NCBI GenBank assembly: GCA_017458675.1
Contig: JAFTAM010000016.1
Location: 15 to 64,014 of the forward strand
DNA length: 64,000 bases
Direction: 5' to 3'
Origin: a bacterium
GTDB taxonomy: Bacteria; Vulcanimicrobiota; Xenobia; Xenobiales; Xenobiaceae
Position numbers and translations under genes: made by a program. How positions within the stretch are numbered: position 1 is the first letter of the stretch; every line of letters starts with the position of its first letter. The notes beneath the pieces were generated by a model. That model worked only from the letters and a program-made list of their open reading frames with translations, was not told the DNA's origin and did no database searches. Shown one piece after another: positions 1-64,000 of this stretch.

Positions 1-140
1 TTGCGCTGAAGCGAGCGTCCGAAGCGAAGCGCAGCCGCGGAGCGAAGTGCAGCCGCGGAGCGAAGTGCAAAACAAAACCGACATAGCGAAAACAAGCAAA
101 ACAGACATTTATTCAGATCCTTCGCTCAGGATGACAAAGG
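1..140. repeat. Partial copy (3' portion, cut by window edge) of the dispersed ~178-bp intergenic repeat family; ends ...cgctcaggatgacaaaggg
   Basis: Aligns by eye with 19230-19303 and with revcomp of 28238-28330 (gcagccgcggagcgaagtgcaaaacaaaaccgacatagcgaaaaca...cttcgctcag-atgaca). Confidence 0.5.
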
Positions 141-252
141 GAAAGCTCAGGACGGCAAAGCGCGGCGGCATAAAAAAAATCCTCTCATGCTCAATAAGAA
201 CATAAGAGGATTCTATCTTTGCAGACTCAGGCAAAAGGCGTTATTTGAGGCG

Positions 253-6527: not shown

Positions 6528-6590
6528 GCGCTTATGCGAAAAACAGCAGAATGCGGAGGCAAGATTCAACCCTGCGCTCAGAATGACATT
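6528..6590. repeat. Short fragment (3' ~60 bp) of the intergenic repeat family upstream of the A2M gene
   Basis: gcgaaaaacagcagaatgcgg...cctgcgctcagaatgacatt matches 3' end of element at 19245-19303. Confidence 0.35.
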
Positions 6591-19010: not shown

Positions 19011-19107
19011 AGCGTTCTTCACTCCGCAGAGCAAACCTACGCGCCCCCCTCCTCCCCTATGCCGCAGGAGCTGCAGCCGGGCCTTAAAAACCAAAAACCT
19101 CCTTATG

Positions 19108-19390
19108 CTGTCAGCGCAAATGCAATGTCGGTAAGTTAAGCAAAAACAAGCTTTTAGCATACATTCTTAATAAAGGTTTTCTTTGACGCGTACGCGGAGA
19201 TTCGAGCGTAAGCGAGCGCGGAGCGGTAGCGACAAAGAAAACCGGCATAGCGAAAACATGCAGAACATGATCTAAAGATTCTTCGCTGCGCTCAGAATGA
19301 CAGAGGAAACATTTACAAGCCTAATGCAGAAATGCTATTGTGCCATTTTTAGCAAGTTATTGCCTTAACTTTATGACATTGGCGCAAAGG
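19108..19390. repeat. Copy A of dispersed intergenic repeat (core ~19127-19303, 177 bp, termini tgtcgg...gaatgacag) plus ~85 bp extension shared with copy B
   Basis: ~85% identity by eye with 22607-22875; core matches revcomp of 28238-28415 and partial copies at 1-140 and 6528-6590. Confidence 0.6.
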
Positions 19391-19412
19391 AGGTCTTTTA
19401 TTTTCCGAGCTT

Positions 19413-22232: not shown

Positions 22233-22471
22233 CCTTCCGTTTCCCGTTCGTCACTTTTGAAAATTAAACCAGCCCTTACATATCTCCGCACAATAGCCGT
22301 ACAGACAGAGAAAGCGCCGAGTCAATGGCTATTATACAAAAATACGCGCAAAAAATACAGGCAGAGCAGCCAATCTAAGCTGCCTTCAGCCTGTTTTGCA
22401 GAAATAATCGGGACGCCAAAAATGCGCTGCAGCTTTAAGCTCCGCTGAAGGCGCGGTCATCATACGCCTCA

Positions 22472-22875
22472 CTGCCGGCAAATTAAGCAAAAACAGCTTT
22501 AAGCATACACGCTTTACACAGGTTCTGTTCTGCACAGGAGCGAGCGTCTTAGCTAAATGCAGCCGCGGAACGAAGCGCAGAACAAAATCGACATAACAAA
22601 AAACTACTGTCGGTAAGTAAAGGAAAAACAAGCTTTTTGCGTACATGCTTAATAAAGGTTTTCTTTGACGCGTACGCGGAGATTCGAGCACAGCTTCGCG
22701 CGGAGCGGCAGCGACAAGAAAACCGGCATAGCGAAACAAGCAGAACATGATTGATAGATTCTTCGCAGCGCTCCCTGCGGCAGGAGAAGCGTTTACAAGC
22801 ATAATGCAGAGATGCTGCCGTGCCATATTCGGCGAAAGACAGTCTTAACTTAAGAATATTGTCATACGCCGCTGC
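22472..22875. repeat. Tandem pair of intergenic repeat elements (copy C 22472-22606, copy B 22607-22875)
   Basis: ctgccggcaaattaagcaaaaacagcttt and ctgtcggtaagtaaaggaaaaacaagcttttt both resemble the copy A 5' end; B is ~85% identical to A over ~260 bp. Confidence 0.6.
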
Positions 22876-28066: not shown

Positions 28067-28237
28067 AACGCACCCCCGTATATTCCGAAACGGATAAAGT
28101 TTATGCTCAATAAATAGCAGCTCGTCTGGAAATTATTTAGAAAAATACTGCTCGGCTGACCGATGTCGTTAAGTTAAGAATAAATTTAGCTGAAAATGCG
28201 CGGCAAAATATCTGCGCTATGCTTGCAAACGTTTGAC

Positions 28238-28415
28238 CTGTCATTGAAAGCGCAGCAAAGAATCTTTCAAACATAGTCCGCATGTTAACGATATGTCGGT
28301 TTTCTTTTGCACTTCACTCCGCGGCTGCATCCGGATCGGACGCTCGCTCTTGAGCAGAACAAAACCTGCGTAAAACAGATTTGCTTAAAGATGCTTTTGC
28401 ATAACTTGCCGACAG
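28238..28415. repeat. Complete 178-bp copy of the intergenic repeat element in inverted orientation, termini CTGTCATTG...CCGACAG
   Basis: Reverse complement matches the copy A core and the window-start partial copy; terminal inverted pentamer CTGTC/GACAG. Confidence 0.6.
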
Positions 28416-28790
28416 CGCTCGGCAGACAGGTCATATTGAACGCTGAAGCGGCAGCGGCCGGCAGCGGTCTTGCATATGCTGCTTTGACTGTTTTTATGAA
28501 AGATATCTCATAACAGCCGCGTTACTGCCGCAGCGCACGGACATACCGCTGCAGCGCGGCGTTTCGGAGCTATCGGCAATACTTGCCTGCATAAACTGCA
28601 GGGCGTTTTGCCAGCGCCGGATATTATATGATTGTCCGCTCAGATTCGCCAATGCCGGAATTACAGAGCCTGACAGCCCGGCGCTGCCGGCGCCGGCCGG
28701 GAAGGGCTGAATTGCTCCGCCGAAAATCTGCAAAAAATTTTTTGTAAGCGGCAGGAAAAATCTCAGTCCGCGTATTAAATTTTATATACC

Positions 28791-33976: not shown

Positions 33977-34942
33977 GTGAATGACGCTATCCGCTTGCCT
34001 TTTTACGACAAACAGGAATATCTGAAAAACCTAAGGCCTATCAACGACCTTATGTTTCGCCTCTGCGCTAAATCCAAAAGCTGGTGCGAAGAGCTGCTGC
34101 GCACAGTTTTCGACGACGGTAAACTTACAGTAGAAGAAAACTGCGTTCAGTACGATTTAGCCAATCCCGGCCGCCGTTCCGTCATTCTGGACGCCAAATG
34201 CCGCTTAGGGAACGGCGATCTGGTTAATATCGAAGTTCAAACCGGCGAGCACGGCGATCATCAGAGAAGAGTACGTTTCCATTCTGCCCTGCTGACCGCC
34301 GAATCCAGCCTGCCTCAGATGGATTTTGCGGATATTCCCAATGTCTGCATAATTTATATATGCGAATTTGATATTTTCGGCTACAATAGTCCTATATATA
34401 AGGTTGACCGCGTGCTGCGCGGCTTCGGCGATGTATTGGATAACGGCTGTACGGAAATATACATAAACGCGCTGGCCAGGGACAATTCCAAAATTTCTCG
34501 GTTAATGGAGATTTTCGTAAACCGGGACGCCTATAACTTTGAAGATTTTGCCAATATTTCCACAATCAAACATTACTTTTTCAACTCTCGGAAAGGACAG
34601 GAAGAAATGGACGAAGCTCTGGAAAATTTATTTAAGGGCAGTTTAGCCCAGGTCAAAGCGGAAGCAATAGCTCAAGGTTTAGCTCAAGGCATGGCTCAAG
34701 GCATTGCTCAAGGCAAGGCTCAAGGAATTGCTGAAGGCAAGGCTCAAGGTATTGCTGAAGGTAAGGCTCAAGGTATTGCTCAAGGCAAAAAAGAAGGCAT
34801 AATATCCGTATTTATCAATCTGGTGAAGGACGGATTAATTTCTGTAGGCGAAGCCTGCAGACGCGCTGAGATATCAGAGGAAGCGTTCAAAGCTTTTATG
34901 GAAAAATACAGCCAGGAACAGGCTCAGATACAACATAACTGA
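33977..34942 (+). CDS. Rpn-family recombination-promoting nuclease / putative transposase (PD-(D/E)XK, YhgA-like) with C-terminal (AQGI/AEGK)n repeat
   Basis: N-terminal YhgA-like region (PINDLMFRLC...NIEVQTGEHGDHQRRVRFHSALL); 12-nt periodic gctcaaggxattgctcaaggc repeats encoding AQGLAQGMAQGIAQGKAQGIAEGKAQG; GTG start with GGAGGTG RBS. Confidence 0.8.
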   Translation: MNDAIRLPFYDKQEYLKNLRPINDLMFRLCAKSKSWCEELLRTVFDDGKLTVEENCVQYDLANPGRRSVILDAKCRLGNGDLVNIEVQTGEHGDHQRRVRFHSALLTAESSLPQMDFADIPNVCIIYICEFDIFGYNSPIYKVDRVLRGFGDVLDNGCTEIYINALARDNSKISRLMEIFVNRDAYNFEDFANISTIKHYFFNSRKGQEEMDEALENLFKGSLAQVKAEAIAQGLAQGMAQGIAQGKAQGIAEGKAQGIAEGKAQGIAQGKKEGIISVFINLVKDGLISVGEACRRAEISEEAFKAFMEKYSQEQAQIQHN

Positions 34943-41323: not shown

Positions 41324-41479
41324 GACTTTTTTATTTTCTAGATAAGCTCCTTGTTTCCTATTCGGCAGAGATACAACTCCCCAATTACAATATTGCGTCA
41401 AGCGCCGACTTCAACCAGGAACGAACAAATTCAATTCAGAAATAGCGAAGGAGCAAAGTTCTGCAAATATGATCTGCAA

Positions 41480-42373
41480 ATGAGGTCTTTAAATATGAAT
41501 TTCAAAAAGAGTTATATTTCTTTGTTAACCGCCGCGCTGCTCTTATCCGGCTCCATAGCCTGCGATCGGCAGCCTGCCAGATCGGACGCTCCGAAAAATA
41601 TAGTTTCCAATACCGGCTTCCAATCCGAAGGTCTGGCGGCCGAGCGCTATGAATCGGTTACGGGACTGGCGGTTTACGGCTCCGCCGGGGATATCAAAGT
41701 GCATTTGGCCGCTCTGGCCGAAAAAGCCCCGGATAATATAGACAGATTCTTTCTGCTGCTCAATTCCAAAGCCCCCAACCAGGCTATTTTAGTACAGGCG
41801 CCTGATGTAATTCCGGCTCAGGCGATAGAAAAGCAGATTAGCAGCAAAGTTACCGTAACCGGCAGCGTTAAATCGGTTAACTGTCCGGACTTGGACAGTT
41901 TCATCAGCAAAAACTTCGGCACCGATTTAGCTAAAACCGCCCAAGGCGAGTTAGCCTACATTGCTGCGGAAGCTCCCTTTGACTTTAATCTGGAGCCCGC
42001 TTCGGAAAAGAAGCAGCAGAAGGTAGAGATTTCTCTCGAAGGCACGCCTCTGGGAGCTCCCGCCAAGCCGGAGACAGAATCCGAAAAGCCGCAGCCCCCC
42101 GCCGCTGAAAATGCCGAATCCGACGGTGCGGCCGTTCCTGCGCAGACTCCCGACAAACCGGTTTCCGCCACCGAACAGATAAAAACCATAGAACCTCCGC
42201 CGGTCTCTCAGGGACACACCGTGCAGGCCAAAGCGCTCCCCAAAGCTGACGCAGGCAGCCGCCAGCCGGAAGCGCAGGCTCCGCAGGAAGCGCCTCCCGC
42301 CGAACCTGCGCCCACACCCATAGCTTCGGAAGCGGACCGTCCTTCCGATCTGCCCACTCCCGTACAGTATTAG
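41480..42373 (+). CDS. Secreted/lipoprotein-like protein with Pro/Ala/Glu-rich low-complexity C-terminus
   Basis: Signal peptide MNFKKSYISLLTAALLLSGSIAC; start moved to an internal Met to remove overlap with the divergent upstream gene. Confidence 0.5.
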   Translation: MRSLNMNFKKSYISLLTAALLLSGSIACDRQPARSDAPKNIVSNTGFQSEGLAAERYESVTGLAVYGSAGDIKVHLAALAEKAPDNIDRFFLLLNSKAPNQAILVQAPDVIPAQAIEKQISSKVTVTGSVKSVNCPDLDSFISKNFGTDLAKTAQGELAYIAAEAPFDFNLEPASEKKQQKVEISLEGTPLGAPAKPETESEKPQPPAAENAESDGAAVPAQTPDKPVSATEQIKTIEPPPVSQGHTVQAKALPKADAGSRQPEAQAPQEAPPAEPAPTPIASEADRPSDLPTPVQY

Positions 42374-42424
42374 CGCGCCGATTCCGAAACCGCCGCAATT
42401 TTCACATGACGAAAGAGGATAAAA

Positions 42425-44083
42425 ATGGCACTTCCTAAGATAGATGAATTCAAGGTTAATCTGCAGATTTTTAATACCGAAGCCCTGCATGCGGACTTTG
42501 CTCCCTGGAAGCGCAGCGAACGCGGTCAGCAGGTTTATATAAAGCTGCTTAAAGACGATCAGACCGCCCTGCTTTACGTAGGTGAAAATTGCGTTTTGGA
42601 CGCTCAGATGCAGCAAATTCTTATGCGTCTGGTCAACGACGGCTGGAGCGTAGCCGGCGAAATGACCGTCAGCTTTGACGGCAACAGCGATCCCGGCATC
42701 GATCCTTACGTCTATCAGGACCCCATAGTCGTAGAGCTGGGACGCGGCCTGCTGCCTCTGGTAGACCCCCAGTGCGGAGCTCCCTTAGTGCAGGCGATGC
42801 CCCATCTGCGCGACGAAATTGCCAGAGAATCCGGCTTAGTCCCCGCCGGCATCAGAATCAAAGACAACTTAAAGTTAGATCAGTATCAGTATAAAATTTT
42901 GCTGAAAAACTCTCCCCTGACCGACGGAGAAATATTCCTGGACCGCTTTTTGGCCATAGGCTCCTTTGACCAGCTTTCTTCCCTTGAAGGCTGGAGCGCC
43001 GTCGAGCCCACCTATCGCATGAAAGCCAAATGGATTCTGGAGAATCAGAGAGAAAAGGCAGAGAAGCTCGGCTGCGTCCTGGTAGGCCCCCTCCAGGTGC
43101 TGCTGACCCATATCAAGGGGCTGATGCTGGAATCTGCGCCCGAGCTGCTCGGTCTGCAGGATACCTTCAACCTTATCTCCCGCCTGCAGATAACTCATCC
43201 GGTCGTAGTCGAAGAATTTATCACCAATTACAAAAATCTGCGGGCTCTGCGCAAGATCCTCCAGAACCTGCTGAGGGAGCGCGTAGCTCTCAGCAATCTG
43301 GTGACTATTCTGGAAACCGTAGGCGACAATCTTGACAATATTCAGGAGACGGAAATCGTGGTTGAGGCCTGCCGCCAGGCCCTGGCCAGACAGATCTGCA
43401 GCGCCAACCTCAATCAGAACAACGAATTGCTGGCCATCATCACCGGTCCGGAAATCGAGGGTTTAATTGCCGAGCTGAAGGAAATGAATTACATCAACCC
43501 CATCGGCAGCACCGACTTTGAAGAAAAAGCCGACATTGTGGCCTACGCTCTGAAATCAGGTTTGGAGGAAGCCGGAAATCCGCCCGTAGTCGTAACCGAC
43601 GGCAGACTGCGCAACTTCCTCTCCCGCCTCATCGCTTCCGACCTTCCCGGCTTATGCGTTCTCTCCACTCAGGAAGTGACTCTGGGCCACGTTAAATTGA
43701 TCGTCAACGGCGTAGCCGATCTCAAGGACAATAAAATTCAGAGCGAGCCTCAAAGCTTCGAGGGAGACGAAGTCGAAAGCGTCGACAGCGAATTTATCGA
43801 CGAAAACGGCGAAGAGGCTGCCTCCGAATTGATACCCGAAGCCGACGAAGAGCAGGTTGAAGAGATAAAAGAGGAAGAGCTTAACAGCATACCGGAGGAC
43901 CTGAGCTCAGAAAGCGGCGACGATCCCAAAGTCCCGGAAGCGGACAAAACCGCCGAACTGGAACAGGCAGAAGCTGAAAAAGAGAGTCAGCCAGCCGATA
44001 CGGAAGAACAGGAAGCCAAAGACGCTCCCGAAGATAAAAGCGCCATAAAGGTGGATAATATTCTGAGCTTCCTCAAAAAATAG
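42425..44083 (+). CDS. Standalone FlhA/SctV (FHIPEP) cytoplasmic-domain homologue lacking the transmembrane export-gate domain; acidic C-terminal tail
   Basis: Collinear match to the FlhA linker + cytoplasmic domain: DPIVVELGRGLLPLVD...LRDEIARESGLVPAGIRIKDNLKLDQYQYKILLKN (cf. FlhA DPLELEVGYRLIPMVD...IRDNMDLQPARYRILMKG); ILQNLLRERVALSNLVTILETV (cf. VLQNLLDEKVPIRDMRTILETL); PPVVVTDGRLRNFLSRLI...LCVLSTQEV (cf. PVLLVNHALRPLLSRFL...VVLSNLEL). No TM helices in the ORF; AAGAGGA RBS. Confidence 0.75.
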   Translation: MALPKIDEFKVNLQIFNTEALHADFAPWKRSERGQQVYIKLLKDDQTALLYVGENCVLDAQMQQILMRLVNDGWSVAGEMTVSFDGNSDPGIDPYVYQDPIVVELGRGLLPLVDPQCGAPLVQAMPHLRDEIARESGLVPAGIRIKDNLKLDQYQYKILLKNSPLTDGEIFLDRFLAIGSFDQLSSLEGWSAVEPTYRMKAKWILENQREKAEKLGCVLVGPLQVLLTHIKGLMLESAPELLGLQDTFNLISRLQITHPVVVEEFITNYKNLRALRKILQNLLRERVALSNLVTILETVGDNLDNIQETEIVVEACRQALARQICSANLNQNNELLAIITGPEIEGLIAELKEMNYINPIGSTDFEEKADIVAYALKSGLEEAGNPPVVVTDGRLRNFLSRLIASDLPGLCVLSTQEVTLGHVKLIVNGVADLKDNKIQSEPQSFEGDEVESVDSEFIDENGEEAASELIPEADEEQVEEIKEEELNSIPEDLSSESGDDPKVPEADKTAELEQAEAEKESQPADTEEQEAKDAPEDKSAIKVDNILSFLKK

Positions 44084-49745: not shown

Positions 49746-51596
49746 TTGAAAACGCAGACCACTATGACAAACACCACCTGCAAAAATCAAAAGCTTGTAG
49801 CCTGGGTCGAGAAGATCGCCCAGCTTTGCACTCCGGACAAGATTCACTGGTGCGACGGCAGCCAGGAAGAGTATGACCGCCTCTGCCAGGAAATGGTCGA
49901 ATCCGGAACCTTTATCAGATTAAACCCCGAAAAGCGTCCCAACAGCTTTTTGGCCCGTTCCGACCCCGGAGATGTAGACCGAGTCGAAGACCGCACCTTC
50001 ATCTGCACGACCAAGCGTGAAGACGCCGGCCCCACCAACAACTGGATGGCCCCCGACAAGATGAAGGAAATCCTGCGCGGCCACTTCAAGGGCTCCATGA
50101 AGGGCCGTACCATGTACGTCATTCCCTTCAGCATGGGTCCCTTAGGCTCGCACATCGCCCAGATCGGCGTCGAAATCACCGACAGTCCTTACGTTGTCTG
50201 CAACATGCGCATTATGACCCGCATGGGCGCCAAGGTTCTGGACATCCTCGGCGAAGACGGCGAGTTCGTCCCCTGCCTGCACAGCGTCGGCGCTCCCCTT
50301 GAGCCCGGACAGAAAGACGTCGCCTGGCCCTGCGACGCCGACAATAAGTACATCGTTCACTTCCCCGAAGAGAACTCCATCGTATCCTACGGCTCCGGCT
50401 ACGGCGGCAACGCTCTGCTCGGCAAGAAGTGCCTGGCTCTGCGCATCGCCACCAACATGGCCCACCGCGAGGGCTGGCTGGCCGAGCACATGCTCATCCT
50501 GGGCGCCGAGTCTCCCGAAGGCGAAACCACCTATGTGGCCGCCGCTTTCCCCAGCGCCTGCGGAAAGACCAACTTCGCCATGCTCATTCCTCCCGAGAGC
50601 TTTAAAGCCAAAGGCTGGAAGATCTGGACCATCGGCGACGACATCGCCTGGATCAAGCCCGGCAAAGACGGACGCTTCTACGCCATCAACCCTGAAAACG
50701 GCTTCTTCGGCGTAGCTCCCGGAACCTCCGAAAAGTCCAACTACAACGCCATGGCCAGCTGCCGCGCCAACACCATCTTCACCAACGTGGCTCTGACCGA
50801 CGACGGCGACGTCTGGTGGGAAGGCATGACCAAAGAGGCTCCCGCTCACCTGATCGACTGGCAGGGCGCCGACTGGACGCCTGACTGCGGACGTCCCGCC
50901 GCTCACCCCAACTCCCGCTTCACCGCGCCCATTCATCAGTGCCCTTCGATCTCTCCCGAGACCGAAAACAGCAACGGCGTGCCCATCTCCGCCTTCATCT
51001 TCGGAGGCCGCATGAGCACCACCATGCCTCTGGTATATCAGGCCTTTAACTGGGCTCACGGCGTTTATATGGCAGCCACCGTCGGTTCCGAAAAGACCGC
51101 CGCGGCCAACGGCAAGATCGGCGAAGTCCGCCGCGACCCGTTCGCCATGCTGCCCTTCTGCGGCTACAACATGGGCGACTACTTCGATCACTGGTTCAAT
51201 ATGGGCCGCAAGAATACCATGCCCATTCCCATCTTCCGCGTCAACTGGTTCCTCAAGAAGGACGGCAAGTTCTTATGGCCCGGCTTCGGCGACAATATGC
51301 GCGTCCTGAAGTGGATCATCGACAGAGTTCACGGCCGCGCCAAGGCGATCGAGAGCCCCGTCGGCTTAATGCCCACCTATGAGGACATCGACTGGACCGG
51401 CCTCGACATCACCAGAGAAGACTTCGACGTCCTGATGACCGTCGACAAGAAAGCCTGGAAGAATGAGCTGCTGCTTCAGGAAGAGCTCTTCATGCGCCTC
51501 AGCGAGCGTCTGCCCCGCGAGATGATCATGGAGCGCCAGCAGTTCCTCAGCCGCCTCAACCGTTCCAACGACGTCTGGACTCCTCCTCACAACTAA
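49746..51596 (+). CDS. pckG: Phosphoenolpyruvate carboxykinase (GTP-dependent)
   Basis: Characteristic GTP-PEPCK sequence throughout (FPSACGKTN kinase-1a P-loop, [36 protein letters not shown]). Confidence 0.95.
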
Positions 51597-51621
51597 GGAC
51601 AGAGGTCTCTGAGTGAATAAA

Positions 51622-51656
51622 ACGCCTGTCTTAAAACAAAGGCAGGCGTTTTTTTT
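51622..51656 (+). terminator. pckG rho-independent terminator (island-proximal copy)
   Basis: acgcctgtctt/aaggcaggcgt stem followed by T8. Confidence 0.7.
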
Positions 51657-51746
51657 GCAGAAGGCGGATTCTCCGCCGCCGTTCAGAAAGGCGGCAAAAT
51701 TTCACCGGCCGCCCGAAGCTGTACTCATACGGCAGACACACGGCGG

Positions 51747-52121
51747 TTATTCAGCTTCAGCAATATCATACGGGAATTCCGGTTCTGTTCTGAAGTCCGC
51801 TCCGAATTCAGAAAAAGCTCTGACATACTTTATTATCTCTTTCGCCTTCCCGCTTATGACAAAATCCGAACTTTGCAGCAGGGATTTTGCCTCAAGATAA
51901 TTGCACTGCCTGAGCTTAGCCAGGCACTTGATCACATTGAGCTGCGGGCGGTCCGTTTTTGGAATGGTTACCGTATAAACGGTTTTATCAGCTTTAATCG
52001 GCGAAAAATATGTTGTCGCCCAACCCCATCCACACTTAGGACAAAGCATCCCACAGGAGCCAGACTCATGATAATATTCCATCAATTCACCGCATTTTTC
52101 ACAACAAGTAGTTTCAGTCAC
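51747..52121 (-). CDS. Small zinc-ribbon protein with C-terminal domain resembling ribosomal protein L7/L12 C-terminal fold
   Basis: CxxC...CxxC (CEKCG...CPKCG); C-terminal NVIKCLAKLRQCNYLEAKSLLQSSDFVISGKAKEIIKYVRAFSEFGADF patterns like L7/L12 CTD (NVIKvvRe.tGLgLKEAKdLVe.aP.vvKegvsKeEAeeiKkkLEeaGAkV). Confidence 0.5.
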   Translation of the reverse strand: MTETTCCEKCGELMEYYHESGSCGMLCPKCGWGWATTYFSPIKADKTVYTVTIPKTDRPQLNVIKCLAKLRQCNYLEAKSLLQSSDFVISGKAKEIIKYVRAFSEFGADFRTEPEFPYDIAEAE

Positions 52122-52633
52122 TGCTTTCCTCCTGGATAAAATTTTTTAAAACATCCTCTATTACTATAATCTGGCTTCTTAGGTGCATCTTGCCTACTTC
52201 CGGCTACGAAATACCTACCATTTGGATAAACCCACACTTTTTTTGTAGGTGCTTCAACGATAACGTTTAGTTTGTTAGCAAGATTTTGAGCAAAACCTTC
52301 AGATTCTGCACCAGTGTCACAAGAGAACAAACGAATTGATTTGTTTTTTAAATCTGAGTTTTTCTTAAATATCTTAGAGGCCATTCGATGATCAATTTCA
52401 ATAGAAATGCCATTATTCTGAATCTCAATAGTAGTAGAAGTTCCATGAGCAATAACATCATAAAATCCGTTTCTGTCAATATCTTTGCGTTTACGGATAA
52501 ATTTACTGAAATTATCATTAAAAGACATATAATCTACACTACCAGGAACAGCCAAACTACCATATGTGTTTGAATAAATTCCACTTTTTCCAGCTCCCAT
52601 TTTTACATCCGCCTCTTTCTGCAAGAAATCCAA
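52118..52633 (-). CDS. Hypothetical 171-aa protein with His...Cys dyad arrangement (VIAHGT ... RLFSCDTGA) suggestive of a caspase-like (clan CD) peptidase/toxin domain
   Basis: Conserved-looking HG then xCxxG spacing typical of the caspase/gingipain/CPD fold; overlaps neighbours by 4 and 31 nt (operon). Confidence 0.45.
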   Translation of the reverse strand: MDFLQKEADVKMGAGKSGIYSNTYGSLAVPGSVDYMSFNDNFSKFIRKRKDIDRNGFYDVIAHGTSTTIEIQNNGISIEIDHRMASKIFKKNSDLKNKSIRLFSCDTGAESEGFAQNLANKLNVIVEAPTKKVWVYPNGRYFVAGSRQDAPKKPDYSNRGCFKKFYPGGKQ

Positions 52634-53277
52634 TCAGGATAATGCACAAATTTAGTTTTGTTAATAACATCTGCAAAAATGGAATCAGGCATTGCACCAT
52701 ATACAAGTACAACTTCTGGCAGTAATTCTTCTAACATTGCCTTAAGACCATGTTTAAAAAAATACTTATCTTCTCTGCTACGAATTCCTCCATAAGTGCC
52801 TATAGACACAATACTATGCTTCGGAATTCCAAGGAATGCGAATTTTTCTGGAAGTATTTTTGTAGTATAACTACGTTCATCACCCCAGCGAATATTCGGT
52901 ATTACATAAACGCCACGTTTTTGATAATAATAGCCCACTGCACGATTTCTATAAGTATTTGACATCTGTGCTTGCAGAGGCATGTCACGATACAAAGAAT
53001 TATCTAATGTAACAATACCTGCAAAAGTTTTTATCAATTCATAGTACTTCTCAGGATTTTTTAAAATATCACTAAACTCAATATCATATTCATAAAACGT
53101 GACAAATTCAGAATGATCGCCACTTTGAGAAATTTTAGAAAATGGAATCACACGTTTAGGGATAATAATTTCCGATGGTTTCTCAATACAAGGCATTTCA
53201 AGAATACCATCAAACTTTGCGCCTTCAACAAATTCAGGATTAAAGCCATCATCAATTATAATTTTATGTTTAGGCAT
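52603..53277 (-). CDS. Hypothetical 224-aa protein (island cargo, first gene of three-gene operon)
   Basis: AT-rich ORF; no domain confidently recognised. Confidence 0.5.
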   Translation of the reverse strand: MPKHKIIIDDGFNPEFVEGAKFDGILEMPCIEKPSEIIIPKRVIPFSKISQSGDHSEFVTFYEYDIEFSDILKNPEKYYELIKTFAGIVTLDNSLYRDMPLQAQMSNTYRNRAVGYYYQKRGVYVIPNIRWGDERSYTTKILPEKFAFLGIPKHSIVSIGTYGGIRSREDKYFFKHGLKAMLEELLPEVVLVYGAMPDSIFADVINKTKFVHYPDWISCRKRRM

Positions 53278-53499
53278 AATAGCTCCATTCTACTTAAAAA
53301 CGCAACATAAAACCGTATCAATCAATAAAGTACACAGATTATTAATTGACAAAATAATATAAATGTGCTATTATGCAATATAGTTATATGTGTTCAATAG
53401 CACTTAACATTAAAACGCATGTTTTTACTGCGGCAACAGTTAATTCGTGCGTTTTTCTATTTTACAGGTAAAACATTGCAATTTAAGTATAGATAATAA

Positions 53500-54597
53500 T
53501 TAATCTCTAAATAAAGAAAGAAGATCGTAGTAAAAATACAAACGATTTCTTTTTTTACCATCTGTAAATAATAACCCCCTTTCAACCATAATATTCAAAT
53601 ATCTATTAATTGTCGCTAAAGGAATGCCTGTGAATTCATGTAAAAGTCTAGCATCAAATATCGGCATCTGATATATCCCATCAATGATTTTAACTATACT
53701 GCTAGATGATTTAATAAGTCCACATGCTATTTCCATATGCTTTGAATATAACTCATTAACATTAGAAATTATTTGAACATATTTTTTACATTGCTTTGCG
53801 ATAATATCTAAAAAAAATTTAATCCAATCATTCCATTTTTCAGGCAAACGCGTATCATTCAACATTTTGTAATATTTAAGTTGATCTCTTTCAAGCGCCT
53901 CACTAATAAAGAAATAAGGAAGTTCTAACTGTGATTGAAAATAAAGATATAAAGGAATCAAAATCCTGCCAACACGTCCATTTCCATCACTAAAAGGATG
54001 AATAGTTTCAAATTGCGCATGAACAATAGCAACTCTAATCAATGGATGAATTCTATCTGTAGGTGAATTTAAATATTGAATAAAATCTTTCATTAGCTGT
54101 GATACTCGTTCTGGCTCTGGTGGAATATAAACAAGTGTTCCATCATTTTTTCCAACATAATTTTGATGATCTCTATATTCGCCTACAGAATTTTCATTTT
54201 TTCTTACTTTTCCACTCATTAATTGTTTATGTATAATCTTAAAAAAATCATCAGAAAAATCCCCTCTTTTAAGCATATGAAACCCAATTTGCGTAGCTGT
54301 AAAATAATTATCTACTTCATTTAAATTTTTATTATCCTCATCACGTACAATTTTATTAATTAATACACCATCTAAAGTAGCTTGAGTTCCTTCCATCATA
54401 GAAGATTTCATAGCTTCTTTTTGTTGTAAAGTTGGCATAAACCAATTTGGATTAACTTTACTGTCTTTAATTTTTTCCTTATAAACTTCAAACATCGATA
54501 CTGCCTGAATTAATTCATCAAGAAATACACTATAATCCAGAATTCCATAGGCTTCCGGTAATGGTTTTGGCGCATAAGGTTTTTTCATATTACTCAA
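53500..54597 (-). CDS. Fic family protein, class II-like (canonical HPFSDGNGRVGR motif plus N-terminal inhibitory SxxxEG motif SSMMEG)
   Basis: HPFxDGNGRxxR at ~res 200; [ST]xxxE[GN] at ~res 65; AT-rich codon usage unlike the host genes. Confidence 0.85.
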   Translation of the reverse strand: MSNMKKPYAPKPLPEAYGILDYSVFLDELIQAVSMFEVYKEKIKDSKVNPNWFMPTLQQKEAMKSSMMEGTQATLDGVLINKIVRDEDNKNLNEVDNYFTATQIGFHMLKRGDFSDDFFKIIHKQLMSGKVRKNENSVGEYRDHQNYVGKNDGTLVYIPPEPERVSQLMKDFIQYLNSPTDRIHPLIRVAIVHAQFETIHPFSDGNGRVGRILIPLYLYFQSQLELPYFFISEALERDQLKYYKMLNDTRLPEKWNDWIKFFLDIIAKQCKKYVQIISNVNELYSKHMEIACGLIKSSSSIVKIIDGIYQMPIFDARLLHEFTGIPLATINRYLNIMVERGLLFTDGKKRNRLYFYYDLLSLFRD

Positions 54598-54720
54598 TAT
54601 TTTATCTCCTAAATCATAGAATACTCTAATATAGAATCATTGTCAATAGTTTTTGAGCGGGATTTTCTTTTTTTTTATTTATAAAGTCAATATCAATACA
54701 TTATTGTCATAAAATATTCT

Positions 54721-55233
54721 GTCGGTTCCGAAAAGACCGCCGCGGCCAACGGCAAGATCGGCGAAGTCCGCCGCGATCCGTTCGTCATGCTGCCTTTCTG
54801 CGGCTACAACATGGGCGACTACTTCGACCACTGGTTCAATATGGGCCGCAAGAATACCATGCCCGTTCCCATCTTCCGCGTCAACTGGTTCCTCAAGAAG
54901 GACGGCAAGTTCTTATGGCCCGGCTTCGGCGACAATATGCGCGTCCTGAAGTGGATCATCTACAGAGTTCACGGTCGCGCCAAAGCTGTTGAGAGCCCCG
55001 TCGGCTTAATGCCCACCTATGAAGACATTGACTGGACCGGCCTCGACATCACCAGAGAAGACTTCGACATACGGATGACCGTCGACAAGAAGGCCTGGAA
55101 GAATGAGCTGCTTCAGGAAGAGCTCTTCATGCGCCACAGCGAGCGTCTCCCCTGCGAGATGATCATGGAACGCCAGCAGTTCCTCAGCCGCCTCAATCGT
55201 TCCAACGACCTCTGGACTCCTCCTCACAACTAA
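54721..55233 (+). pseudogene. Displaced, decaying duplicate of the pckG 3' end (encodes only the last 148 codons)
   Basis: ~97% nt identity to 51081-51596, with a 3-bp deletion and several nonsynonymous changes (IDRVHG to IYRVHG, VLMTV to [15 protein letters not shown] to [10 protein letters not shown]). Confidence 0.8.
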
Positions 55234-55258
55234 GGACAGAGGTCTCTGAGTAAATAGA

Positions 55259-55293
55259 ACGCCTGTCTTCAAATCGAGGCAGGCGTTTTTTTT
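55259..55293 (+). terminator. Duplicated pckG terminator (distal copy)
   Basis: acgcctgtctt/gaggcaggcgt stem followed by T8. Confidence 0.6.
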
Positions 55294-63026: not shown

Positions 63027-64000
63027 ATGGATTCAAACAAACAAGATAACCTAAATAACGAGCTTAACGCCGCTCGCTTAAAATCCAGACCTCAGCCCGG
63101 CCAATTATCAGCTGCCAGCAGAGAATCTGTTCCGGCTTCCCAGATTAGTTCGGAAGGCCGTCTGAGCTTAAATGCTCCGGTTCATAACGGACAAGCCGCG
63201 GCAGCGCCGCTTGTGATGCGCCAGCGCAGCGGAGGGCTCGGAAGCTTACAGCAAAAAGTCCAGCAAGGACTCAATTCCGGCGCAGTTCATAATACAAGAG
63301 TATACGCTTCCGCAAATACAGCCCCTTCGTCGTCAGCCGGACCGCAGAATCTGCAGCCGGGCGCCGCTGCGATGCGAACCGGTTCTGTTCAGAGACCGGC
63401 CGGGACGTCTGCCGATTCTGTAAACAGCGGCGCAGTGCATTCTGCCCAGCCTCAGCGTCCTGTCTCCGCCGTCCCCGTACAGGGCGCGCGCACAGCCTCT
63501 ATGGCCGCCCCCGCGCCGCAAAGAACCGCCGCTCAGCCTGCCGGTTCTTCAGGCAATTCTGCGATACGCGCCGCTTCGCCCGCTCAGCGGCCCGCCGCGG
63601 CCGCACCCGTACAGGGCGCGCGCACAGCCTCTATGGCCGCTCCCGCGCCGCAAAGAACCGCCGCTCAGCCAGCCGGGACTTTAGGCAATTCTGCGATACG
63701 CGCCGCCTCGCCGGCTCAGCGGCCCGCCGCGGCCGCACCCGTACAGGGCGCGCGCACAGCCTCTATGGCCGCTCCCGCGCCGCAAAGAACCGCCGCTCAG
63801 CCCGCCGGGACTTTAGGCAATTCTGCGATACGCGCCGCTTCGCCGGCTCAGCGGCCCGCCGCGGCCGCACCCGTACAGGGCTCGCGCACAGCCTCTATGA
63901 CCGCTCCCGCGCTGCAAAGAACCGCCGCTCAGCCAGCCGGGACTTTAGGCAATTCTGCGATACGCGCCGCCTCGCCGGCTCAGCGGCCCGCCGCGGCCGC
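63027..64000 (+). CDS. Partial (3' beyond window) ORF encoding a low-complexity Ala/Pro/Gln-rich protein with near-perfect 44-aa tandem repeats
   Basis: ATG preceded by GGAAAGG RBS; open frame to window end (absent from the supplied track, apparently because it has no stop in the window); repeat PVQGARTASMAAPAPQRTAAQPAGTLGNSAIRAASPAQRPAAAA. Confidence 0.6.
   Translation, partial: MDSNKQDNLNNELNAARLKSRPQPGQLSAASRESVPASQISSEGRLSLNAPVHNGQAAAAPLVMRQRSGGLGSLQQKVQQGLNSGAVHNTRVYASANTAPSSSAGPQNLQPGAAAMRTGSVQRPAGTSADSVNSGAVHSAQPQRPVSAVPVQGARTASMAAPAPQRTAAQPAGSSGNSAIRAASPAQRPAAAAPVQGARTASMAAPAPQRTAAQPAGTLGNSAIRAASPAQRPAAAAPVQGARTASMAAPAPQRTAAQPAGTLGNSAIRAASPAQRPAAAAPVQGSRTASMTAPALQRTAAQPAGTLGNSAIRAASPAQRPAAA
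63474..64000 (+). repeat. 132-bp tandem repeat array (at least 4 units, continuing past window end) inside the partial ORF
   Basis: cccgtacagggcgcgcgcacagcc recurs at 63474, 63606, 63738, 63870; units ~97-100% identical. Confidence 0.8.

Follow-up and report, generated by a model that had tools for sequence, protein, structure and literature searches.

A probable family of miniature inverted-repeat transposable elements with a covarying central hairpin in an uncultured bacterium of the class Xenobia

The intergenic region between a Fic-domain gene and the convergent mutL gene contains a non-coding sequence that recurs at several other places of the same contig. What kind of element is it, and how did it spread? 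The first-pass annotation described a MITE or REP-like family rather than a coding sequence. We analysed the window, that is, the whole stretch of 64,000 nucleotides, which covers nearly all of a 64,026-bp contig, together with related contigs and public sequence collections. The repeats very probably constitute a family of non-autonomous DNA transposons (MITEs) that are moved in trans. The host, an uncultured bacterium from the ruminant gut, is placed near Candidatus Bruticola (Vulcanimicrobiota, class Xenobia). The nearest GTDB genomes are Candidatus Bruticola MAGs (59% identity of MutL, query MBQ7501217.1), and near-identical contigs, all with the same insertions, are present in ruminant-gut ENA assemblies and one Logan run.

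The repeat occurs at all five places named in the first-pass annotation, well above chance. In the self-BLAST comparison, region 19126-19381 matches 22608-22861 (80.9% identity over 256 nt) and, in inverted orientation, 28414-28160 (68.8% over 260 nt). Further matches were found between 22472-22595 and 28415-28292 (79%), between 40-143 and 19204-19309 (73.9%), and, weakly, between 6536-6588 and 19250-19302 (73.6% over 53 nt, E 5e-5). An nhmmer profile built from the three full copies (c19, c22b and c28) recovers these copies with E-values of 1e-79 to 1e-86 and two partial copies with 2.7e-22 and 1e-11; the segment 6536-6588 reaches only E ~0.1 and is a weak member. A 25-position core pattern has five matches in the window and none in 100 shuffled sequences. 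The following copies and parts of copies were delineated.

1-143, plus strand: copy c1, subfamily A, truncated on its 5' side at the contig and window start; its right end is the short-form right end GGATGACA, with the REP-like module at 116-136
6536-6588, plus strand: weak, degenerate 3' fragment, mainly the REP-like module (6563-6588, CTGCGCTCAGAATGACA)
19123-19381, plus strand: copy c19, full long-form element of subfamily B, 259 bp
19123-19140 and 19364-19381: left and right terminal inverted repeats (TIRs) of c19
19175-19189 and 19229-19243: arms of the central stem of c19
19277-19303: TGTC-headed REP-like module of c19
22469-22604, plus strand: c22a, 5' half of a subfamily-A copy (model positions ~3-137) with its own left TIR
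22605-22861, plus strand: c22b, full subfamily-B copy, its right end directly adjoining the right target duplication
28160-28417, minus strand: copy c28, full long form with a subfamily-A core, 258 bp, inverted
28352-28366 and 28298-28312: arms of the central stem of c28
28238-28264: degenerate REP-like module of c28

These boundaries modify the original description in several respects. The unit is longer than the proposed ~178 bp, as c19 shows, and identities within the window are 65-81% rather than 80-90%. What had been read at 22472-22875 as two tandem copies is a subfamily-A half-copy adjoining a full subfamily-B copy. The sequence at 28238-28415 is inverted, as stated, but is not complete, being a part of the 258-bp copy c28. 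The 3'-only fragment is upheld, although it is weak and degenerate. As noted originally, every copy in the window is intergenic and both orientations are represented. We observed no consistency in the position of the copies relative to gene ends or in their orientation relative to genes. Copy sizes range from 180 to 393 bp, and stops occur in all six frames of every copy. A small-protein reading was rejected: the single frame that stays open for longer lacks a consistent start and crosses the covarying hairpin described below. Likewise rejected was the idea that the 3' extension preserves a relic of a transposase C-terminus, as the peptide search returned only more spurious open reading frames from the same MAG.

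The long form (~259 bp) is bounded by imperfect TIRs of ~18 bp, CAATGTCGGTAAGTTAAG on the left and CTTAACTTTATGACATTG on the right. In c19, the left TIR and the reverse complement of the right end (CAATGTCATAAAGTTAAG) are identical at 15 of 18 positions. Every full copy has TIRs; they are also found in c28, in the composite formed by c22a and c22b, and in a nested subfamily-B copy on another contig (L008B). A conserved TGTC lies in each TIR, 3-4 nt inside the tip. The first-pass annotation placed the termini at CTGTC...GACAG. For c19 this does not hold: GACAG (19299-19303) lies within the element, whose actual right end is GACATTG (19375-19381). It does hold for a shorter form of ~180 bp on contig L008, with ends CTGTCATTC...GAATGACAG.

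The flanks of the insertions were scanned for direct repeats, as had been proposed originally, with offsets of 0-8 nt allowed and 2000 flank shuffles per insertion. Direct repeats of 9 bp flank four of the five testable long-form insertions, and the flanking 9-mer differs at each of them. Each match was equalled by 0-13 of the 2000 shuffles. The three duplications in the window are as follows.

19114-19122: left duplication of c19, GCGCAAATG
19382-19390: right duplication of c19, GCGCAAAGG, 8/9 identical to the left one
22460-22468: left duplication of the c22 composite (22469-22861), TCATACGCC
22862-22870: right duplication of the c22 composite, TCATACGCC, 9/9
28151-28159: first duplication of c28, CTCGGCTGA on the plus strand
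28418-28426: second duplication of c28, CTCGGCAGA, 8/9

The fourth insertion is the nested copy L008B, which has a perfect 9/9 duplication, (T)GGCTAAGAC. The long copy L009b has no flanking duplication, and for the short form none was found in three cases. The range 19108-19390 given in the first-pass annotation happens to cover c19 together with both of its duplications. An empty site was not seen in any strain: c19 is present in each of the four other assemblies of the locus, contigs L001, L005 and L006 being among the carriers. The partly syntenic loci of Candidatus Bruticola contain no copy, but are too rearranged to act as an empty site. A filled and an empty state can be compared between paralogues, as the subfamily-A copy on L008 is interrupted by a B copy, whereas c1, L010_2 and L016_5 are uninterrupted at this position.

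Copies outside the window were reached by a protein-library search with a spurious open reading frame that runs through c22 (22386-22826, minus strand). This search retrieved five other 'proteins' and then three more, all of which are translations of further copies of the repeat. These copies lie on seven or more additional contigs, which belong either to the same MAG or to assemblies of related samples (L007/L008, L009 with two copies, L010, L011, L016 with five units, P0126, P0130 and P0131). Contigs L007-L011 and L016 carry full, partial and arrayed copies; P0126, P0130 and P0131 belong to the same NCBI MAG (locus tag IJT93) and are annotated as 'partial' at contig ends. The tetranucleotide signatures of L016 and L009 correlate with that of the window (r 0.95 and 0.89, respectively). 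The contig of the window and several others terminate within a repeat copy. Copies on so many contigs, several of which end inside them, indicate that the family is spread over the whole genome and disrupts assemblies. Spurious open reading frames that are translations of the repeat have entered public protein collections, NCBI nr among them ('hypothetical protein IJT93_...', P0123-P0131).

Beyond these contigs, GTDB species genomes, JGI metagenomes and IMG/VR were scanned with the core pattern, which identified no family member. A scan of the latter two collections with the TIR pattern returned just four 22-nt matches, all of them chance hits whose similarity does not extend outside the pattern itself. 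In plasmid and phage collections, the only match was a module of 23-31 nt. The Rfam search suggested by the first-pass annotation yielded no window match at gathering thresholds, and the copies themselves gave only chance-level matches (E above 1).

Could the copies be simple segmental duplications or recombination products of this region, with no mobility? All five window copies fall within its first 29 kb, and tandem or chimeric arrays occur, as such an origin would predict. The first-pass annotation had reserved this reading for copies confined to the window, with neither flanking duplications nor covariation; instead, copies are found on many other contigs, a different 9-bp repeat flanks each insertion, both orientations are represented, divergence between copies is 6-35%, and a central stem covaries. 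The dispersed copies and the site-specific flanking duplications refute local duplication, and we assign it a negligible probability. The TIRs, the 9-bp duplications at four independent insertions, the nesting, the dispersed copies and the lack of coding capacity all support the MITE interpretation.

The 17 aligned units form two subfamilies that are ~60-70% identical to each other and up to 94-96% identical within.

Subfamily A: c28, c22a, c1, L008A, L010_2, L016_1/3/5
Subfamily B: c19, c22b, L008B, L009a/b, L010_1, L011, L016_2/4

Since c19 and L008B are 94% identical, some of the transposition was fairly recent. The short form is seen cleanly only as L008A, where it is bounded by a 13-bp perfect inverted repeat, CTTACTGTCATTC...GAATGACAGTAAG. 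Its right end is the REP-like hairpin module that lies in the interior of the long form; the latter has an extra 75 bp bearing the second TIR. An ancient internal tandem duplication was tested as a possible origin and rejected, the first and second halves of the element showing no significant similarity.

On L008 the B copy lies within the A copy, and the A sequence continues after the duplication; this nested junction is identical in two independent assemblies (L007 and L008). The half-copy c22a ends at the same internal site, so that the A/B junction in c22 is the same as on L008. An intact, clean nested insertion at c22 was nevertheless rejected: the displaced 3' half of c22a gave no significant match after c22b (score 9-11, compared with ~10 +/- 1.6 in shuffles). 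The perfect outer duplication combined with the absence of the A remainder indicates that the chimera moved as a unit. Contig L016 contains a tandem duplication of a unit made of an A half and a B part. Many loci are chimeric, which weighs somewhat against the MITE interpretation, as it may also be a product of recombination or, on short metagenomic contigs, of misassembly. Contig L010 (ENA k141_22652) has an Illumina adapter (GTGACTGGAGTTCAGACGTGTGCTCTTCCGATCT) fused to a repeat copy at ~806-853, at the start of the reverse strand, which points to adapter contamination or chimerism in the public assembly; L010 may be partly misassembled.

The site occupied by c19 deserves a separate description. 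When c19 is removed together with one duplication, the convergent Fic-domain gene and mutL are again separated by a canonical bidirectional intrinsic terminator. Its arms, now separated by the insertion, are located as follows.

19097-19108: left arm of the terminator, between the Fic gene (plus strand) and mutL (minus strand)
19384-19394: partner arm, followed by a T-run

The restored terminator, ACCTCCTT(A)TGC-TGTCAGC-GCAAAGGAGGT, has T-runs on both strands, and the reconstructed empty site folds with z -3.9 and -6.2. With c19 in place, the RNA of either strand is predicted in silico to re-form the terminator stem around the folded element. A general preference for hairpin targets was considered and rejected: only the c19 site is a significant hairpin, while the empty sites of c22 and c28 are not, and we therefore make no claim of hairpin targeting.

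Inside the element lies a 15-bp central stem, which was predicted independently by RNAalifold. In the alignment, 91% of its cells are paired, compared with 41-54% when the partners are slid by 1-3 columns. At least five compensatory events were found in this stem, and five pairs show double changes; these include C-G to G-C and G-C to U-A replacements between the subfamilies and separate events in c22a, L010_1 and L016_2/4. Covariation, another test proposed in the first-pass annotation, was thus detected. The apex region of the hairpin is variable: c1 has an 18-bp tandem duplication there (AGCGAAGTGCAGCCGCGG, 2.6 copies, at 23-69), which suggests that the apex tolerates length change. The compensatory changes in these sequences argue for constraint on the hairpin, which may act as DNA or as RNA.

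The covarying stem raises the possibility that the repeats are structured non-coding RNA genes or cis-regulatory RNA elements, perhaps derived from MITEs, which would function through their transcribed hairpins, with mobility secondary or extinct. Small RNAs derived from MITEs are known in Coxiella (PMC10969869), and c19 taken with its flanks folds better than shuffled sequences on both strands (z -3.1 and -4.3). Among whole elements, however, only c19 exceeds its shuffles (z -2.8 and -3.3); the other two of the three full window copies, c28 and c22b, do not (z -0.9 and -0.2). Neither a conserved promoter nor a terminator was found within the element, Rfam gives no match, the orientation of copies relative to genes is inconsistent, and the compensatory changes fit a DNA structure equally well. 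We regard an RNA gene or RNA regulatory element as quite improbable. The conserved covarying stem is still not required by a purely selfish transposon, and in this respect it counts against the MITE interpretation. Our guess is that the internal structures descend from a palindromic ancestor, serve in recognition or as structural features, and would fold a transcribed element back on itself.

The second internal structure is the module GATTCTTCGCTGCGCTCAGAATGACAG (19277-19303 in c19), which has 87-100% identity over 23-31 nt to plasmids of several unrelated bacteria.

Cyanobacteria: Calothrix, Planktothrix, Oscillatoria
Bacteroidota: Hymenobacter, Phocaeicola
Acidobacteriota: Granulicella
Gammaproteobacteria: Aquicella

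Its consensus is GTCAT[TGC]CTGAGCG..AGCGAAG[ACG]ATC. In those plasmids, the module constitutes one arm of 70-100-bp palindromic intergenic elements with CTGTCAT...ATGACAG ends, some of which are arranged in tandem arrays (three ~98-bp units in Planktothrix). Read on the reverse strand, it is a TGTC-headed hairpin with a stem that covaries among taxa (ATTCT/AGAAT, ATGCT/AGCAT, ATCCT/AGGAT). The unpaired TGTC head followed by a stem starting with A-T and T-A pairs (CTGTC-AT... on the reverse strand of 19277-19303) is common to the elements of Calothrix, Planktothrix, Oscillatoria and Hymenobacter. In the predicted structure, 5 bp are followed by G.A/A.G and a further 2 bp; the loop has 3 nt and the tail is CTT/CTC. 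A literature search with strings of the module sequence identified no paper showing that sequence.

This module invites a second alternative, namely a REP/REPIN-like palindromic family, spread by a tyrosine/HUH (RAYT-type) enzyme or by some other route and retained because it serves the host, for example in mRNA stabilisation, termination or binding of nucleoid proteins. Its 3' hairpin covaries across phyla, the central stem is maintained by compensatory changes, the short form lacks target duplications, and the loci form mosaic clusters resembling bacterial interspersed mosaic elements. Such an enzyme would not explain the 9-bp duplications at the long-form copies: HUH/Y1 enzymes (IS200/IS605, RAYT) are not known to make target duplications. 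REPIN/RAYT systems, with their GTAG-headed REP doublets, a RAYT gene and no target duplication, also differ from the present family in the head sequence, TGTC, and no RAYT or Y1 gene was found in the window. A closer likeness exists with the CGTC/TGTC-tagged REPs (Di Nocera et al. 2013, PMC3733652), which are ~30 nt long, occur in several phyla, have no associated transposase, and have an unpaired CGTC (or TGTC/CCTC) head, a stem starting with A-T and then T-A, and a short tail, to which the reverse complement of the 3' module (CTGTC-ATTCTGAGC-GCA-GCGAAGAAT-CTT) can be likened. Here, however, the tail is CTT/CTC and not CCA, and the predicted stem has a 3-nt loop and two G.A mismatches, while published stems have 8-9 clean pairs and a 4-5-nt loop. 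Published families are mostly head-to-head dimers of 20-40-bp units with 20-100-bp spacers; in our case the heads point outward, the spacer is ~120-200 bp and has its own conserved hairpin, and the module is only a part of a 180-260-bp element with 9-bp duplications. As tail, loop, stem quality and dimer orientation all depart from the definitions of PMC3733652, we describe this as a resemblance and not as membership. Given also the inconsistent placement relative to gene ends, a REP-type origin of the family is improbable. We speculate, with little confidence, that the module is the recognition end of a widespread mobilisation system, in which CGTC/TGTC repeats would be moved by a DDE-type enzyme that cuts with a 9-nt stagger.

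Returning to the MITE interpretation, the anatomy of the element suggests the following scheme. A transposase encoded elsewhere would bind both inverted ends, excise or copy the element, and insert it at a target site cleaved with a 9-nt stagger; once the staggered ends are repaired, the 9-bp direct repeats would remain. The elements have landed in intergenic DNA, once in the stem-loop of a bidirectional terminator and repeatedly in other copies of the family, giving nested and chimeric arrays; the chimera of an A 5' half and a full B copy has itself transposed as a unit. We infer the action of the transposase from the element itself, and the mobilising enzyme would, by analogy, be of the DDE type. 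No transposase was found in the window, and no autonomous element with matching ends in the window or in the public pattern scans. The only window match named 'transposase' is the open reading frame 33977-34942, with a PDDEXK_2 (Rpn/YhgA-like) score of 28.0 bits at a cut-off of 27.4. The same open reading frame contains a 12/24-bp tandem repeat (34670-34788) that encodes about ten A-Q-G-x repeats.

Other observations in the window concern loci outside the repeat family. A low-GC island lies within 51081-55293 (32% GC at 52-54 kb, compared with ~52% elsewhere) and contains genes for a Fic/DOC protein (53500-54597) and a DUF4417 protein (52603-53277) and a small open reading frame. It is bracketed by a ~490-bp direct duplication of the 3' end of the PEPCK gene (51081-51656 and 54721-55293), which consists of two blocks of 300 and 187 bp with 94-96% identity. 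The island has the appearance of an integrated element with the 3' end of pckA as its target, for which it brings a replacement end; no integrase was seen. A GC-rich 132-bp tandem repeat (four copies, 96% identity) occupies 63474-64000 (and 63319-63978), reaching the end of the window and contig. For the open reading frame 42425-44083, the match to the FHIPEP (FlhA/type III export) profile is restricted to the C-terminal half of that profile (positions 327-653), and another open reading frame in an overlapping frame, 41351-42373, is located just upstream; together, 41351-44083 may be a frameshifted or split flhA-like gene.

How does the family compare with characterized mobile elements? IS50/Tn5 (IS4 family) generates a 9-bp target duplication, and the Tn5 inside/mosaic end begins with CTGTCTCTT. 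The CTGTC near the tip in most copies and the 9-bp duplication resemble these ends, which we treat as a lead only: the true tips lie 3-4 nt outside TGTC, the remaining TIR sequence is unrelated, and no IS4-type transposase was found. Bacterial MITEs with 9-bp duplications are documented, as in MITEAba12 of Acinetobacter, which is mobilised by ISAba12 (PMC6382973). Like the Xenobia elements, it is small and non-coding, has TIRs of ~16-18 bp and 9-bp duplications that are kept by only a fraction of copies, and is mobilised in trans, as the Xenobia elements probably are. Its TIR sequence (GGCTTTGTTGCACAAA) is unrelated, its length is 113 bp instead of 180-260 bp, its parent insertion sequence is known while none was found for the Xenobia family, and neither a covarying internal stem nor subfamily chimeras have been reported for it. 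QMITE2 of Coxiella burnetii (PMC10969869) is similar in its 7-9-bp direct repeats, 23-29-bp TIRs, 113-145-bp core and strongly folded transcript. Insertion of MITEs into one another is also documented, and the clustering and mutual insertion of the pneumococcal BOX, RUP and SPRITE elements (PMC10969869) parallel the nested A/B arrays described here. These elements belong to other phyla and share no sequence similarity with the family; transcription and MITE-derived small RNAs are documented in Coxiella, whereas the Xenobia family is described here from DNA sequence.

In sum, the kind of element is known; new are the MITE family and the lineage that hosts it, and the current understanding of such elements is not overturned. 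The interpretation in the first-pass annotation is supported, with its unit length, termini and identities corrected. The covarying central hairpin and the REP-like module common to several phyla are mildly unusual traits. The family provides a defined, annotatable repeat for a poorly known gut lineage (Xenobia/Vulcanimicrobiota), in which such repeats break MAG assemblies and yield spurious 'hypothetical proteins' in public databases. It also points to active or recent transposition in the Xenobia lineage, including insertion into a terminator and self-nesting. The link of the module to cross-phylum REP-like hairpins offers a concrete place to seek the mobilisation mechanism of CGTC/TGTC REPs. 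If the module is indeed the recognition end of a shared mobilisation system, the long form with its clean 9-bp duplications would give a first point of access to the movement of the 'transposase-less' repeats of the CGTC/TGTC type.
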